Shown: in pieces, positions 13,036 to 21,478 of the stretch
Position numbering within the stretch: the first letter of the stretch is position 1
How the letters are laid out: each line of letters opens with the position of its first letter
Source of the DNA: Gemmatales bacterium
GTDB lineage: Bacteria > Planctomycetota > Planctomycetia > Gemmatales > HRBIN36
Assembly: GCA_041640595.1 (NCBI GenBank)
Contig: JBEPZY010000001.1
Coordinates: 1,026,657 to 1,090,656, forward strand
Length of the DNA stretch: 64,000 nucleotides
Direction: 5' to 3'
Position numbers and translations under genes: made by a program
Notes under the pieces: generated by a model
The model's input: only the letters and a program-made list of their open reading frames with translations
What the model was told of the DNA's origin: nothing
Database searches by the model: none

Positions 13036-13342
13036 GGCCCAATCCTCCCTGTCGGTCAAATGGCTCAAATTCGCATAGTGCGTTTCGCATATTGTAGTGG
13101 CTTACACCGTACTTCAGGCGCGAACGCCCGTTGATTGACCCAATCTTTTTTCTGGGAGTGCCCCCGGTTCGCGGAAACCGGATAAGTGCCCTCCAAAAAG
13201 TAACACAGTGCTCAGGCCAGAGCAAATCACTCGGCCCGGCTCCATGATCCTGGACGATAAATTTCACGTGCCTAAGAAAACTTGGTCGGCGTCGTCGTGT
13301 ATGTCGGAATATGCCTGATTTCGGAGCTTGTGGAGGACGGTC

Positions 13343-14572
13343 ATGAAGCGAGCCTCTGCATCAGTTATGGCAACCGCTGTGGCAATGTCCTGGCTCATCG
13401 TAGCTGGTGGTTTCCCAGTCGCAGCGGGTAAAGACGACGGCCCCCCTGTCGAGGTGAAAGGCCTTGCCGACTCGCTCAACAAATTCACATGGGACGTTTA
13501 TCCCAGGTTGAGGAGCAAGCCGGGTAATCACTGTTTTTCTCCCGTGGCCATAGCCAATTCGCTGACACTCGTAGCAGCAGGTGCCCGTGGCAGAACAGCC
13601 GACCAGCTTTTCACTGCGCTTCACCTTAACGACCGCCGCGGAGAACGAACGCATGAGGCAATGCGACAATTGAGTGAATGGCTGAAAGTATATAGCGGAC
13701 AAGCAGGGTGTGAACTGCATCTGGCCGTTGCGTTATGGACTCGCGGTGAGCGGAACTTGCAACCCGGCTATGTCGAGCTGGGTCGTAAGTTTTATGGGGC
13801 TGAGTTTCACCGCCTGGCTCATGACGATCCTCCCGAAAAGCTGCGACAGCGAATTAACCAGTGGGCCGAGCGCCAAACCAAAGGCAAGATTACGCAATTG
13901 CTCGTGGATAACGATCTCGACGCGGGCATTCCTCTGTTACTCACCAGTGCCAACTACTTTCAGGCTAACTGGAAGTTTCCTTTTGACCAGCGCCTGACCC
14001 AGCAACAGGATTTTGTTACCGACTCCGGCAAAACGGTGCGAGTTGCTATGATGCACGGCATGTTCTGGCTTCCGTATTATGCAGATGAGCAGGTGCAACT
14101 GGTGCTGTTGCCTTATTCGTGTACCGGGCTGAATATGGCCATTCTGATGCCCAGAGGCAACCAAACTGAGCTGAGCAAGCTCGAGCAATCCTTGCAAAGT
14201 GAATCGTTACAACGGTGGCTATCGGGTGCCCAGGTAGATAGAGTCGACTTATCCTTACCTCGTTTCCAGGTGCAGGGTAGCTATCGTTTGGAACACGTGT
14301 TAGCCGAACTCGGTTGCAAAGACGTTTTTACTCTTGGTGTTGCCGATCTCAGCGGCATCACGGGGAACCGCGACCTGTACGTGGGCCGAATGTGGTATAA
14401 GGCATTGACGACCGTCAGCGAACAGGGCACAGAAGCCGCGGCGGCAACAACTGTCGAATTCAAGGCCGTACCTGTTGCGTTTCGCGTCAACCGACCATTT
14501 TTGTTCCTGATAATGGACATCCGCTCGGGTTTGATACTATTCGCCGGTCGTGTGGTAAACCCGCTGGGTTAG
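13343..14572 (+). CDS. serpin family protein, secreted
   Basis: GGAGGA precedes ATG 13343, followed by a signal peptide. Hinge EQGTEAAAATTV and C-terminal NRPFLFLIMD...ILFAGRVVNP are serpin hallmarks. Confidence 0.85.
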   Translation: MKRASASVMATAVAMSWLIVAGGFPVAAGKDDGPPVEVKGLADSLNKFTWDVYPRLRSKPGNHCFSPVAIANSLTLVAAGARGRTADQLFTALHLNDRRGERTHEAMRQLSEWLKVYSGQAGCELHLAVALWTRGERNLQPGYVELGRKFYGAEFHRLAHDDPPEKLRQRINQWAERQTKGKITQLLVDNDLDAGIPLLLTSANYFQANWKFPFDQRLTQQQDFVTDSGKTVRVAMMHGMFWLPYYADEQVQLVLLPYSCTGLNMAILMPRGNQTELSKLEQSLQSESLQRWLSGAQVDRVDLSLPRFQVQGSYRLEHVLAELGCKDVFTLGVADLSGITGNRDLYVGRMWYKALTTVSEQGTEAAAATTVEFKAVPVAFRVNRPFLFLIMDIRSGLILFAGRVVNPLG

Positions 14573-14884
14573 CAAATTGGTGCAGCCTGGGTGGCACTTT
14601 TTAGCATAAACCATTGCCCAACTGCGGCGTTACGGCAGCATGAATCAGTATGCTACCGACCTAACCACTCATTCCCAGGGCCAAGCACTTTGATCCCAGG
14701 GCGTGAAATCCTCGGCAGCGTTCGCGTATTGATGCAAAGTGCGAAACAGCTGCCCAGCCATCGGGAAATTTATCAACTTGCCCACAGGTGGCACGTCTCT
14801 TGCGAGGAGGCTGGAAGCCCCTGCAAAGTGCAAAGCTAAATGAATGCCCGCGGCCGAGTTCGACCGTAAGTTTTGGGGCAATGG

Positions 14885-15751
14885 CTATGGGCGTGGGCCA
14901 CCGAATCCGCCGAAAGGTGGTCCGCCAAAACCGCGACCGCTTCCAAAACTGATACCGCGCTGTTGCATCCGTTCCTGCATCAATCGGCGATATTCCGAAC
15001 GCATTGCTCGCATTTCCGGGCTGGTGTGATCGAGGTAAAGGCGACGCAGGCGGTCACGCTCTTCGCTAGAAAGAGGCCTGCGTTGACCAGATGGGGCTGG
15101 ACCTCCCGCCTGTGGGCCCGGGCCTCCCGGTCCGCGCCCTCCTGGCCCACCGAAACCAGGTTTGCCACCTGGGCCGGGACCTGCAGCCGGACCGCCAGGG
15201 CCAGGACCACCGGGATTCCCAGCCCACGGAGGTTTGCCACCGCCTCCCGAATTACCCGAACCGCTGGGGCCACGTGGACCGCGACCACCACCAAAGCCTC
15301 CCTGTTGCATTCGCTGTTCCCACTGCCGACGTCGTTCCAGCATCCGGTCAATTTCCTCGTCAATGCGTTTGATGCGCTGTTCGTAAGGGAGGCTGAAAAA
15401 TTCCCGGAGACGGTCATTGAACCGGTTGTTTTCCTCCATTTCGGCCCAGAGGATCGTGCGCTGCTCTTCGTTGAGATTGCGCATGTTCTGGAACATCTCC
15501 CGCATTAGTTCCCACCGCTTTTGCGGATCGGTCTCGTTGTCAATTTTTTCACGAAGGGCGAAAATTTTTTCCAGTTCCGGATCGGGACGGTTACTGTACC
15601 ACCAGGCGAAGGCCATCCCGCCCAGGAAAAGCAACAGGATAAGCACGACCGCAACAATGGCCACCTTCTCCCGTTCCTCACGGAGAAAGTCCCGGACACG
15701 AAGGGCCTTCTCGCGCGTCCATTCCCAGGCACGTTCGAAATACTCGCGCAT
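14885..15751 (-). CDS. membrane-anchored hypothetical protein with long Gly/Pro-rich low-complexity region
   Basis: AAGGAG precedes ATG 15751. One TM segment (VAIVAVVLILLLFLGGMAFAWW), helical charged segments, and an about 75-aa GGPG/RGP tract. The C-terminus is FGGPPFGGFGGPRP. Confidence 0.6.
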   Translation of the reverse strand: MREYFERAWEWTREKALRVRDFLREEREKVAIVAVVLILLLFLGGMAFAWWYSNRPDPELEKIFALREKIDNETDPQKRWELMREMFQNMRNLNEEQRTILWAEMEENNRFNDRLREFFSLPYEQRIKRIDEEIDRMLERRRQWEQRMQQGGFGGGRGPRGPSGSGNSGGGGKPPWAGNPGGPGPGGPAAGPGPGGKPGFGGPGGRGPGGPGPQAGGPAPSGQRRPLSSEERDRLRRLYLDHTSPEMRAMRSEYRRLMQERMQQRGISFGSGRGFGGPPFGGFGGPRP

Positions 15752-15773
15752 GGCCAGCTCCTTTGTCGAGGGC

Positions 15774-16355
15774 CTATTGACAATGGCCGTCGGCGTACAC
15801 AATCACCCGACTGGTGGGCGTTCCCTCAGGGCCGTGGAAATTGTCGAAGTCGTAGCTGAGCATGATCTGGTGGCTACCTCGTTGCCGTTGCGCTTCGAGT
15901 TCCTCCAGCGTTTTCCCGGCCACGCTGGACGGATATTCGTAGCTCAAGCCGATGTCGGGATAATTTTTCGCCCGCTCACGTTCCCAGTAGTGGTAATACT
16001 GCGGAGTATTGGGATCCGTCATGCGATCCACGGGGCAGCGGAAAATCAAGCCATTGCCTTCGACGTATGGGTAGAGTTCATCAGCCAGGGTGGGTCGCTG
16101 CGGCGCGATGCTGGGCATCTGGGCCGCGTCGGGGTAGCGCAACCCATTAGTCTGACGGTACATCTCCAGAGCCAGACCGATCTGTCGGAGATTGTTCATA
16201 CACTTGACGCGATTGAACGCCTGCCGCACGCGCTGTACGGCCGGCATCATCATCCCCATCAGCATCATAATAATCGCCAGCACCACCAGCAGTTCGACCA
16301 GCGTGAAACCACTCTTACGGCCTACCATTTGCTTTCTCGCGCGACTAGCTGACAT
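15774..16355 (-). CDS. prepilin-type N-terminal cleavage/methylation domain protein (DUF1559/HX9DG-like)
   Basis: [24 protein letters not shown]-terminus and C-terminal ...FHGPEG...[14 protein letters not shown] precedes ATG 16355. Confidence 0.8.
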
Positions 16356-16493: not shown

Positions 16494-16594
16494 CAAACCA
16501 GTCGGCCAACTGGAAGTCGAAAGTCCTGCGGACTGGCTAACCCTCTGCCCAATGCGGCCCCCTAACAAACCAGTCGGCCAACTGGAAGTCGAAA
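16494..16594. repeat. two perfect 29-bp direct repeats (period 72 bp)
   Basis: CAAACCAGTCGGCCAACTGGAAGTCGAAA occurs at 16494-16522 and 16566-16594. Each copy carries the imperfect palindrome CCAGTcggccaACTGG. Confidence 0.9.
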
Positions 16595-16609
16595 ATGGTG
16601 TATCGGTAG

Positions 16610-16630
16610 GCGGAAGTGTTTCCGCTTTTC
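16610..16630 (+). terminator. orphan intrinsic-terminator-like hairpin
   Basis: GCGGAA (16610-15) pairs with TTCCGC (16620-25) around loop gtgt, followed by TTTTCT. No annotated plus-strand gene lies upstream. Confidence 0.45.
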
Positions 16631-16702
16631 TCGGACACGTCGCCGACCGGTTTTTGCACCGCAGCGTATATGCCTGCAAAGGAGGCGATTGGGCTGATTT
16701 GC

Positions 16703-16731
16703 TTGACGTGTAACAGGCATACTGGTAACAT
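16703..16731 (+). promoter_or_regulatory. sigma-70-like promoter candidate for the cimA leader
   Basis: TTGACG (16703-08), a 17-nt spacer, then TAACAT (16726-31) with an upstream TGn (16723-24). Confidence 0.35.
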
Positions 16732-16800
16732 ATCAGCAAACTCCACAGCGGGAGCAGCTTGCAGCCCGTTCTTTACCTGAATCCACAAGGAACGGCATTG

Positions 16801-16857
16801 ATGCTGGTTCGAGTCGGTCGGATTGGCGAGGCAGTGATTATTATTACCGGCCTGTAA
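16801..16857 (+). CDS. 18-codon Ile/Val/Leu-rich leader peptide (attenuation uORF) of cimA
   Basis: AAGGAA (16787-92) lies 8 nt before the ATG. The peptide is MLVRVGRIGEAVIIITGL*. ATT ATT ATT at 16837-45 sits immediately 5' of hairpin segment 1. Confidence 0.6.
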   Translation: MLVRVGRIGEAVIIITGL

Positions 16858-16900
16858 TGGGCCGGGAGGCTCCCGCTGTCCGAATCCGCGAGCAGCAACC

Positions 16901-16931
16901 GGCCCTGAGAGAAGCACTCGGGGCCTTTTTT
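16901..16931 (+). terminator. attenuator (intrinsic terminator) 20 nt upstream of the cimA start
   Basis: GGCCCTGAG (16901-09) pairs with CTCGGGGCC (16917-25): 9 bp with one G-U, and a 7-nt loop. TTTTTT follows at 16926-31. The left arm can alternatively pair with 16859-65. Confidence 0.75.
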
Positions 16932-16950
16932 ATTGCCAGCGAGCACAACC

Positions 16951-18522
16951 ATGAGCCGACGCATTGCCATTTACGACACCACACTACGCGACGGCAGCCA
17001 GGGAGAAGGAGTGAACTTTTCCCTGCAGGACAAAATCCTCATCGCCCGGAAACTCGACGAACTGGGCGTGGATTACATCGAAGGCGGCTATCCTTACTCC
17101 AATCCGAAAGATGCCGACTTTTTCGATGAGATTCGCCGCATTCCGTTGCAACATGCTCGCATTTGCGCATTTGGCATGACGCGGCGTCGCAATTGCCGGC
17201 CCGAAGACGATCCCGGCTTACATGCGCTTCTGGCCTCGCAGGCCCCCATTGTAACCATCGTTGGCAAAACCTGGGACCTGCACGTGGAGCAAGTGCTGGG
17301 GGTGTCGCTGGACGAAAACCTGCGGATGATCCGCGAAAGCATTGCCTACCTGCGCAGCCAGGGGCGCACCGTTTTTTACGATGCCGAACATTTTTTCGAT
17401 GGCCTGCACAGCAACCGCGACTACGCCCTGCAAACCATTCGCGTTGCCGAAGACGCTGGCGCCACTTGTATTATTCTGTGCGATACCAATGGCGGCTCGC
17501 TGCCGGACCGCATTGCGGAGTATGTGCGGCTGGCGCGGCAGGCCGTACACACCGAACTCGGCATCCATTGCCACAATGATAGCGATGTGGCCGTGGCCAA
17601 TTCCCTGGCCGCTGTTGATGCCGGCGTTTCCCAGGTGCAGGGCACGATCAACGGCATCGGTGAACGTTGCGGTAACGCCGACCTCATCAGTATCATTGCC
17701 AACCTCGCATTGAAGAAAGGCTACGAAGTGCTGCGCCCCGGCAGCCTGCGCAAACTCACGGAAGTCTCTCGCTATGTGTACGAAACCGCCAACATGAACT
17801 ATCGCAACAATCAACCTTTCGTGGGAATTAGCGCCTTTGCCCACAAGGGCGGGATGCACGTGCACGCGGTGGTGAGAAACACGGCAACCTACGAACACAT
17901 TGACCCTTCGCTGGTCGGTAACGAACGGCGAATCCTGATCAGCGAGCTTTCCGGTCGGAGTAACATCGCCGCCAAGACCAGCCGTTTAGGTTTGCAGCTC
18001 GACGAAACCCTGCTGCGCCGTGTGCTTGAGCGCATTTGTGAGCTGGAGAACCAGGGCTACGAATTCGAAGCGGCCGAAGCTTCGTTCGACCTACTGGTGC
18101 GCAAGCTGGCCGGGCTGTACCAGCCGTGGTTTGAGCGGCTCCATTACCATGTCACCGTGGAAGCCGACAGTGCCGGTCGGCTGGTCAGCGAAGCGACTGT
18201 CAAGCTACGGGTTCGGGGCGAAGTGCAACATGTCGTCGCTGAGGGCGATGGCCCGGTCAACGCACTGGACGCAGCATTGCGTAAGGCCCTGGAGCCGTAT
18301 TTTCCCAAACTCAAAGAGATGCGGCTGATGGATTACAAGGTGCGGGTAGTCAACTCCAGGGCCGGTACCGCCGCCCGGGTCCGCGTCGTCATCGAGTCCG
18401 GCGACAAAGACGATGTTTGGGGCACCGTCGGCGTCAGCGAAAATATCATCGAGGCCAGCTGGCAAGCACTCGTGGATAGCTTCGAATACAAACTGTACAA
18501 AGAGGCGAACAAGTCGCGCTGA
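16951..18522 (+). CDS. cimA: (R)-citramalate synthase (LeuA/CimA family, long form)
   Basis: N-terminus MSRRIAIYDTTLRDGSQGEGVNFSLQDKILIARKLDELGVDYIEGGYPYSNPKD and about 523 aa length match the CimA-type (TIGR00977-like) branch as I recall it. A C-terminal LeuA-dimer-like regulatory domain is present. Confidence 0.8.
   Translation: MSRRIAIYDTTLRDGSQGEGVNFSLQDKILIARKLDELGVDYIEGGYPYSNPKDADFFDEIRRIPLQHARICAFGMTRRRNCRPEDDPGLHALLASQAPIVTIVGKTWDLHVEQVLGVSLDENLRMIRESIAYLRSQGRTVFYDAEHFFDGLHSNRDYALQTIRVAEDAGATCIILCDTNGGSLPDRIAEYVRLARQAVHTELGIHCHNDSDVAVANSLAAVDAGVSQVQGTINGIGERCGNADLISIIANLALKKGYEVLRPGSLRKLTEVSRYVYETANMNYRNNQPFVGISAFAHKGGMHVHAVVRNTATYEHIDPSLVGNERRILISELSGRSNIAAKTSRLGLQLDETLLRRVLERICELENQGYEFEAAEASFDLLVRKLAGLYQPWFERLHYHVTVEADSAGRLVSEATVKLRVRGEVQHVVAEGDGPVNALDAALRKALEPYFPKLKEMRLMDYKVRVVNSRAGTAARVRVVIESGDKDDVWGTVGVSENIIEASWQALVDSFEYKLYKEANKSR

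Positions 18523-18562: not shown

Positions 18563-21478
<2,916 letters not shown>

Follow-up and report, generated by a model that had tools for sequence, protein, structure and literature searches.

In silico evidence for a leader-peptide transcription attenuator upstream of the citramalate synthase gene cimA in a Gemmatales bacterium

The DNA preceding cimA, the gene coding (R)-citramalate synthase, was analyzed in a stretch of 64,000 nucleotides (nt) from a Gemmatales bacterium (assembly GCA_041640595.1, contig JBEPZY010000001.1, positions 1,026,657 to 1,090,656 of the forward strand). The whole stretch is called here the window and its first letter is position 1. Most probably the cimA leader is a functional transcription attenuator in which a ribosome translating a short leader peptide controls cimA, a conclusion reached in silico from the anatomy of the leader, the mutually exclusive pairings of its RNA segments, their order of folding, conservation and covariation. 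Every defining feature of classical attenuators that is testable in silico is found in the window leader. These features are an upstream open reading frame (uORF) with a start codon and a ribosome-binding signal located 3' of a promoter-like site, a cluster of isoleucine (Ile) codons near the uORF 3' end, an intrinsic terminator between the uORF and cimA, an antiterminator formed by segments 2 and 3 (2:3), an anti-antiterminator formed by segments 1 and 2 (1:2; present in the window and not general), and a geometry that fits the ribosome footprint.

The elements of the leader are listed in Table 1. A preliminary description of this DNA, made from its letters, had reported the Shine-Dalgarno (SD) sequence, the uORF in which 9 of the 18 residues are Ile, valine (Val) or leucine (Leu), its three consecutive ATT codons, segments 1, 2 and 3, and the terminator followed by six T residues. 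Reading of the sequence places all of them where they had been reported, and its identification of the gene at 16951 as citramalate synthase is borne out by the TIGR00977 score. The 1:2 pairing is made of six Watson-Crick pairs and one U.G pair with the stop codon inside a 5-nt loop. The terminator stem, GGCCCTGAG (16901-09) / CTCGGGGCC (16917-25), has eight Watson-Crick pairs and one U.G pair and is also recovered by an independent terminator scan. A strict scan of the window finds seven terminators on both strands, the one in the cimA leader being the strongest on the + strand, and no + strand terminator between 16925 and 33582. Three consecutive ATH triplets occur only five times on the + strand of the window, whose G+C content is 56.7%, and Ile accounts for 22% of the uORF codons compared to 4.5% in 10 large ORFs of the window. 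The minimum free energy (MFE) of the 206-nt leader is -85.2 kcal/mol versus -71.4 +/- 4.3 kcal/mol for dinucleotide shuffles (z = -3.3; 0 of 200 shuffles as stable). Taken jointly, these features are far above chance expectation.

Table 1. Coordinates of the cimA leader elements and of the two genes that follow them.
Feature	Position	Strand	Description	Basis
Sigma-70-like promoter (predicted)	16703..16731	+	-35 TTGACG 16703-08, 17-nt spacer, TG-extended -10 TAACAT 16726-31	Consensus scan
P1 helix, 5' strand	16745..16755	+	ACAGCGGGAGC	Perfect 11-nt inverted repeat with 16869-79
Predicted hairpin pairing the uORF SD	16766..16795	+	16766-74 / 16787-95	MFE fold only
SD-like sequence	16787..16792	+	AAGGAA, 8 nt 5' of uORF ATG	Sequence reading
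Leader peptide uORF	16801..16857	+	18 codons, MLVRVGRIGEAVIIITGL followed by stop codon	Sequence reading
Regulatory Ile codons (putative)	16837..16845	+	ATT ATT ATT	Unpaired in MFE fold
Segment 1	16847..16853	+	CCGGCCT, made by the final uORF codons	1:2 hairpin -14.0 kcal/mol
Segment 2	16859..16865	+	GGGCCGG, begins 2 nt past the stop codon	Partner is segment 1 or segment 3
P1 helix, 3' strand	16869..16879	+	GCTCCCGCTGT, in the segment 2-3 spacer	Inverted repeat and MFE fold
Segment 3	16899..16905	+	CCGGCCC, shares 5 nt with the terminator 5' arm	Exact segment 2 complement
Intrinsic terminator	16901..16931	+	9-bp stem 16901-09 / 16917-25, 7-nt loop, T6 16926-31	Scans, hairpin -17.8 kcal/mol
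cimA	16951..18522	+	(R)-citramalate synthase	TIGR00977 equivalog, 727 bits vs cut-off 450
valS	18563..21478	+	Valine--tRNA ligase	NF004349, 1123 bits

The positions of these elements match the space occupied by a ribosome, which, according to a value cited in PMC4833913, covers ~12 nt of mRNA 3' of the codon being decoded. With the A site on 16840 or 16843 the ribosome edge lies at ~16852-57, so that segment 1 is masked and segment 2 is free. With the A site on the stop codon at 16855 the edge lies at ~16867-69 and segment 2 is masked. Both positions agree with the preliminary description, in which segment 2 is exposed by a ribosome stalled on the Ile codons and hidden by one that has reached the stop codon. 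The first one is further supported by folding of nascent RNA that starts at the ribosome edge and ends at 16906-16916, when segment 3 is made and segment 4 is not. Its MFE structure is 2:3 (-24.0 kcal/mol including an apical hairpin, P = 0.98), and nascent RNA starting at 16834, which represents absence of stalling, forms 1:2 in place of 2:3. The 2:3 antiterminator and the terminator are mutually exclusive, as the 7-bp perfect complement overlaps 5 nt of the terminator arm. A stall at the Val codon 16834 or earlier leaves 1:2 largely intact and the threonine (Thr) codon 16846 is too near segment 2. The device of the window lineage would therefore be tuned to the Ile codons.

The mechanism proposed from these data is as follows. 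Transcription from the promoter at 16703-31 is predicted to start near 16738, and the nascent leader would fold into the long-range helix P1, the uORF hairpins and the 1:2 hairpin. A ribosome would then translate the 18-codon uORF. When charged Ile-tRNA is ample, it would reach the stop codon at 16855-57 and cover segment 2, or 1:2 would re-form upon its release. In either case segment 3, deprived of segment 2, would form the terminator stem with segment 4, and transcription would end at the T-tract 16926-31. When Ile-tRNA is scarce, the ribosome would stall at the ATT codons 16840-45 and cover segment 1, and 2:3 would pair once segment 3 emerges, preventing the terminator and giving readthrough into cimA and presumably valS. 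If the uORF is not translated, 1:2 and P1 would keep segment 2 locked, so the default state would be termination.

The leader was compared to those of five close relatives: L081, found on a metagenomic contig, and L161, L162, L163 and L164, on contigs identified by protein search. Their CimA proteins share 95%, 93%, 90%, 90% and 88% identity, respectively, with that of the window, and L163 originates from a Gemmatales metagenome-assembled genome. A CTTGAC[GA]-17 nt-TAnnAT promoter is kept in all six sequences with different spacer sequences, as is an ATG-started uORF of 15-23 codons with the same stop. The order CCGGCC, stop codon, GGCCGG is found in all six, CCGGCC being invariant, and so are CCGGCCCTG[AG]G, the terminator stem and the T-run, the terminator loop being variable. 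The leader peptides are MLVRVGRIGEAVIIITGL (window), MLVRVGRIGKAVIIITGL (L081), MFAAKDQPVVRIVIRAGL (L161), MLCMDKSLSAIGIIITGL (L162), MTPGGSGGAGIAWVTIRTGL (L163) and MKVVWERVVQEITVIIAGR (L164). The amino-terminal two-thirds of the peptide and the 5' untranslated region diverge among the six sequences. The peptide retains its frame, its late Ile/Val codons and the segment 1 codons, with Ile at codon 16840-42 in 6/6 sequences. The uORFs of the window and L081 differ by four substitutions, three of which exchange ATT for ATC at Ile codons and are synonymous. This pattern is the one expected for a regulatory leader peptide, not for a functional micropeptide or a purely structural RNA, and the search for conservation suggested in the preliminary description thus has a positive outcome for the uORF, the Ile codon, segments 1-3 and the terminator. 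Longer TTG-started versions of the uORF were discarded: a 1-nt indel of L081 at 16766 breaks their frame and ATG 16801 is therefore the likely start. The uORF SD is variable in strength among the relatives, being strong (AGGAG) in L163 only, and the SD-pairing hairpin 16766-95, which is not clearly conserved in L081, stays a prediction. The T-tract and the cimA start are 19 nt apart in the window, L081 and L161 and 69-140 nt apart in L162, L163 and L164; additional sequence was therefore inserted or lost 3' of the attenuator.

The P1 helix is a perfect 11-bp pairing of 16745-55 with 16869-79 that encloses the uORF and the 1:2 hairpin and closes a multibranch domain in the MFE fold. Its core GGGAGCG/CGCUCCC is present in all six sequences with one swap of C:G to G:C in L161. 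The P1 5' strand lies 5' of the uORF in four sequences and inside the uORF in L163 and L164. RNAduplex comparison of the spacer with the whole upstream leader gives z-scores of -1.6 to -3.5, with one at +0.7, long interrupted duplexes being dominant. Because these z-scores are modest P1 is graded as probable. It would reinforce the default-off state, and its coexistence with 2:3 as a pseudoknot seems sterically possible. The 5' leader also has a segment-3-like stretch within an imperfect direct repeat (16749-16767 versus 16887-16905, 74% identity; CGGGAGCAGCTTGCAGCCC, CGCGAGCAGCAACCGGCCC) that might act as a decoy tuning the switch.

The occurrence of similar leaders was assessed in 160 cimA loci taken from genomes and metagenomes, 155 of which have at least 200 nt of upstream sequence. 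A strong intrinsic terminator is present within 200 nt 5' of the cimA start in 59 of these 155 loci. ORFs whose stop codon lies 10-60 nt 5' of a terminator were scored over their last 14 codons. At least three Ile are found in the ORF tail for 27/59 cimA terminators versus 1/50 other terminators of the same loci (p = 3e-8), and at least six Ile+Val for 30/59 versus 0/50 (p = 1e-10). Distances from the stop codon to the terminator form a narrow distribution that peaks at 28 nt (43 nt in the window). When CimA shares at least 64% identity with that of the window, an Ile/Val ORF tail is present within 300 nt upstream in 41/73 loci, compared to 5/73 for the reverse complement. Non-planctomycete cimA loci of low identity show no ORF-tail enrichment (14 versus 13 in the reverse complement). 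The carriers belong to Gemmataceae (including Gemmata, Fimbriiglobus and Limnoglobus), Singulisphaera, Planctomycetaceae and Schlesneria, Pirellulaceae, and Phycisphaeraceae. Examples of their leader peptides are ...AVIGVVVVITTG-stop, MIDSHRLIIGIGVAIIIVPA-stop, ...PISIITVVAGITIPASG..-stop, MTLTATTIITITIGNPHPR-stop and VTSGVIIIGVIITLAL-stop. Leaders of the Gemmata type are rich in Val (...VVVVITTG-stop) and, overall, in Ile, Val, Thr and alanine (Ala). A motif AQGVR/AQEVR is common to the Gemmata- and Singulisphaera-type peptides (L007, L012, L015, L018, L083, L088, L089, L090, L099 and others). At the RNA level it corresponds to a perfect small hairpin inside the uORF, GCGCAGGGAGUGCGC, with loop GGGAG or GGAAG, for which a role as pause hairpin or standby site is our guess.

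Family-wide evidence for the antiterminator was obtained by seeking, in each locus, the best upstream partner of the terminator 5' arm. In most loci it either spans the uORF stop codon or starts 0-3 nt beyond it. At least five unrelated terminator arms are accompanied, at the stop codon or past it, by a complement specific to each: arm CCGGCCCUGAG with partner UGGGCCGG, GACCCCGGAGC with ACGGGGUCG, GCCCUGAAGC with GCUUCAGGGC, ACCCUCAGGUCG with GACGCUGAGGG, and ACCCUGCCG with CGGUAGGG. A column-based count of 2:3 covariation on a MAFFT alignment of stop-codon windows and terminators was dropped because segment 2 was out of register, and register-free duplex energies were therefore computed per locus with permutation controls. 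The duplex of segment 2 with the terminator arm has a mean of -15.6 kcal/mol in matched loci versus -12.0 kcal/mol in mismatched loci carrying other terminator types (p = 1e-8 to 1e-14 over controls). Control values are -7.2 kcal/mol for a stretch inside the same uORF and -10.3 kcal/mol for shuffled segment 2. The compensatory changes that the preliminary description proposed to look for in the stems are thus found between 2 and 3 at the level of the family and not within the window lineage, whose segments are invariant.

Substitutions in six independent close leader pairs point to translation of the uORF. Over the last 15 codons they number 13/5/18 at codon positions 1/2/3, and the ratio of synonymous to non-synonymous changes is 13:15 in the uORF frame versus 6:19 and 3:21 in the other frames (p = 0.01). 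Many of the non-synonymous changes are swaps among Ile, Val, Thr and Ala.

The 1:2 hairpin does not extend to the family. Over 46 leaders the segment 1:2 duplex has -9.9 kcal/mol versus -10.4 kcal/mol for shuffled sequences, that is no excess, which rules out this hairpin as a general family feature. It stands out only in the window lineage (the window and L081 in this test), with -15.6 versus -8.1 kcal/mol for shuffles in the window, and in L109. Most relatives are therefore three-segment leaders to which the four-segment model is not transferable. The trp/leu/ilv geometry with four segments put forward in the preliminary description is accordingly retained for the window and its five close relatives and abandoned for most of the wider set. 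In three-segment leaders, whose stop codon abuts segment 2, formation of the antiterminator would be prevented by the terminating ribosome itself, so that an untranslated leader would be expected to read through.

The leader probably controls cimA together with valS. The latter begins 40 nt after cimA and the strict scan finds no terminator between them. The gene valS is found 3' of cimA on the same strand, with gaps of about 12-160 nt, in ~80 fetched loci. Control of the two genes by a common leader rests on the short gap, the missing terminator and the recurrence of the gene order, and would explain the Val-dominated peptides of many relatives, especially those of the Gemmata type. The cimA-valS order, found all across Planctomycetota, also occurs in Omnitrophota and other non-planctomycete groups without the leader. 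The pair is strikingly conserved, and the only metabolic rationale offered is supply of branched-chain amino acids (BCAA). On balance, the data favor an undescribed, phylum-wide family of Ile/Val attenuators on a conserved cimA-valS operon, spanning Gemmatales, Isosphaerales, Planctomycetales, Pirellulales and Phycisphaerae. This family would be mostly three-segment, the window lineage having added the 1:2 hairpin and the long-range helix that make the leader default-off, and its Gemmata members would be evidence for co-transcriptional translation.

Several observations weigh against attenuation by a translating ribosome. The uORF SD is predicted to be paired in the MFE fold and is weak in several relatives. 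The window uORF has just three Ile codons, and L161 and L163 only two Ile plus Val and Thr. At equilibrium the terminator is favored in every ribosome state, by 6 to 13 kcal/mol with segment 2 free. With a stalled ribosome on the full leader the terminator fold has -64 to -68 kcal/mol versus -52 to -57 kcal/mol for 2:3, and exclusion of the 5' part gives -33.7 versus -27.2 kcal/mol. Under the stalled-ribosome mask the equilibrium fold also pairs segment 2 with the segment-3-like stretch 16764-70 across the ribosome, an interaction that could blunt antitermination. The same is true of P1, as a nested fold cannot contain both P1 and 2:3. To our knowledge, coupling of transcription and translation is undemonstrated in Planctomycetota, and spatial separation of the two processes was proposed for Gemmata obscuriglobus (Gottshall 2014, as cited in PMC5394234 and PMC5287468). 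The comparison of conformers that the preliminary description had suggested is therefore split: masking of segment 1 lets 2:3 win in nascent RNA, and the terminator wins at equilibrium. Equilibrium folds, which pair across the masked ribosome and always give the terminator, were rejected as a decisive test and nascent folds were used. Since the terminator always wins at equilibrium, the switch must be kinetic. The attenuation model depends on 2:3 forming first, as accepted for classical attenuators. The terminator of the Escherichia coli trp attenuator is likewise the more stable fold.

The structure of the leader invites a different explanation, in which the terminator/antiterminator switch is real but is set by a factor acting in trans, be it a protein that binds RNA, a small-molecule ligand or, as for T-box leaders, a tRNA, and the uORF is incidental. 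Its strong folding relative to shuffles, the conserved P1 helix, which is idle in the ribosome model, and the weak or paired SD of the uORF all speak for such a factor. We consider it nevertheless quite improbable. Rfam scans of the window leader (E <= 10) and of nine related loci (E <= 1) gave chance matches only (miRNA, snoRNA and sRNA families), T-box included among the families not matched, and the leader is therefore neither a T-box nor a curated Rfam family. The leaders precisely share, in spite of their divergence, an open frame, late Ile/Val codons and a stop codon abutting segment 2; the codon-position pattern favors translation; and the subfamilies have no common conserved core resembling a ligand pocket. 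A role of the uORF at another level, with no choice between terminator and antiterminator, is very improbable. It could act on Rho-dependent polarity, mRNA stability, coupling or reinitiation onto cimA, or as a hydrophobic micropeptide. Leader ORFs near structural genes were proposed to boost translation via reinitiation, also in Planctomycetes (PMC4833913), and cimA has no obvious SD sequence. Reinitiation was rejected on distance, as the uORF stop codon is 93 nt from the cimA ATG in the window and 140-220 nt in L162-L164 compared to a range of 10-16 nt for reinitiation (PMC4833913). The peptide, unconserved save for its Ile/Val and segment 1 codons, and the conservation of a matched antiterminator alongside a canonical intrinsic terminator also speak against a role at another level.

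It is very unlikely that the hairpin and T-tract are a constitutive or leaky terminator, such as one closing a small RNA or a transcript from upstream, next to a uORF that is Ile-rich by chance. Intrinsic terminators do occur between genes and a second, weaker terminator-like site is present at 16610-25. Yet the upstream gene is separated from the terminator by a conserved promoter, ends 550 nt earlier and has a terminator-like site of its own. A chance uORF is also at odds with the enrichment of Ile/Val ORF tails (27/59 versus 1/50, odds ratio ~41), the constrained spacing of stop codon and terminator (mode 28 nt), and the covariation of segment 2 with the terminator arm. Attenuation by the ribosome translating the leader peptide is the reading retained.

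The region 5' of the leader promoter has features of its own. The intergenic stretch 16494-16637 is a 72-bp tandem duplication that is single copy in L081. It holds perfect 29-nt copies of CAAACCAGTCGGCCAACTGGAAGTCGAAA at 16494-16522 and 16566-16594, and each copy includes a small hairpin, CCAGTCGGCCAACTGG. The second, weaker terminator-like hairpin (16610-16632, GCGGAAGTGTTTCCGC then TTTTCTCG), partly kept in L081, probably terminates the upstream transcription unit (gene 15417-16352). This gene codes for a 311-residue protein that has no NCBIfam or Pfam match and is conserved in L081 with 83% identity. Further upstream, the long ORFs 14873-15508 (+) and 14885-15802 (-) on opposite strands overlap, and the 414-codon ORF 13328-14572 (+) codes for a full-length serpin (330 bits to PF00079), a protein family uncommon in bacteria.

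The cimA leaders would extend ribosome-mediated attenuation to a phylum whose gene regulation is almost unexplored and to the citramalate route to isoleucine, for which no described transcriptional control was found. Isotope tracing has demonstrated that an anammox planctomycete makes isoleucine by this route (PMC8027424). They would link under one leader a pathway gene and an aminoacyl-tRNA synthetase gene, valS. Conserved attenuators are found in Gemmata spp. (L020, L036). Since attenuation needs a ribosome close behind RNA polymerase, these leaders bear on the proposal of spatial separation: they are hard to reconcile with a strict separation, a view that continues to be cited, and offer a readout of transcription-translation coupling. 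If they function as proposed, their conservation would be genetic evidence for co-transcriptional translation in Gemmata. The Ile-rich and Val-rich leaders of different lineages form a natural series for the evolution of attenuator specificity, and the three- and four-segment variants suggest that an added hairpin can change the default state, on or off. The leaders could be used as Ile/Val-responsive parts in the small number of genetically tractable planctomycetes.

No published leader peptide 5' of cimA or attenuator in Planctomycetota was found, a mention in the survey of Lopatovskaya et al. 2010 not being excluded, and no Rfam family covers the leader, in line with the preliminary description, which knew of no such attenuator in this lineage. 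The Rfam leaders of the Leu, Thr, His and Trp operons gave no match, a result that is not a test against ilvB-type motifs, whose presence in Rfam was unchecked. The closest functional parallels are the well-known attenuators of the E. coli ilvGMEDA (ilvL), ilvBN (ivbL), thr, leu and trp operons. They have in common with the window leader a uORF carrying a run of codons for the end product, a segment 1 in the 3' end of this uORF, exclusive 1:2, 2:3 and 3:4 pairings, a terminator just before the first gene, termination as the default state of the untranslated leader, and a kinetic decision in spite of the greater stability of the terminator fold. The window leader differs by its phylum, by the lack of any sequence similarity in the Rfam scan, and by its target, which is cimA with valS behind it; cimA opens a pyruvate route to Ile that is absent from E. 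coli. It also has the stop codon in the 1:2 loop, only three regulatory codons and an extra long-range helix. The E. coli pheST operon, with its leader peptide pheM, is likewise a case of an attenuator over an aminoacyl-tRNA synthetase gene, if cimA and valS are co-transcribed as presumed. PheM senses the amino acid of its own synthetase, whereas the window leader would be Ile-specific over valS; a Val-rich leader of the Gemmata type would fit valS. In Firmicutes, a leucine-rich attenuator peptide reportedly precedes ilvD of Staphylococcus aureus, and Rli60 of Listeria is said to be an isoleucine-responsive leader controlling branched-chain synthesis; both concern other genes and are said to act with CodY. 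Leader-peptide attenuators of leuA and ilvB were predicted in Actinobacteria (Seliverstov et al. 2005, PMC1262725), a Corynebacterium ilvB-II uORF was reported to regulate expression of the ilv operon, and the ilvB-OMG and Leptospira ilvB motifs were reinterpreted as candidate uORF attenuators (PMC10272879). Like the cimA leaders, they are non-proteobacterial BCAA leaders found by comparative genomics. The ilvB-type uORFs, which vary in sequence as well as in length, abound in BCAA and Thr codons, a pattern found also in the Gemmata-type cimA leaders, whereas the target genes of the ilvB and leuA leaders are not cimA-valS and their structures are unrelated to that of the cimA leader.

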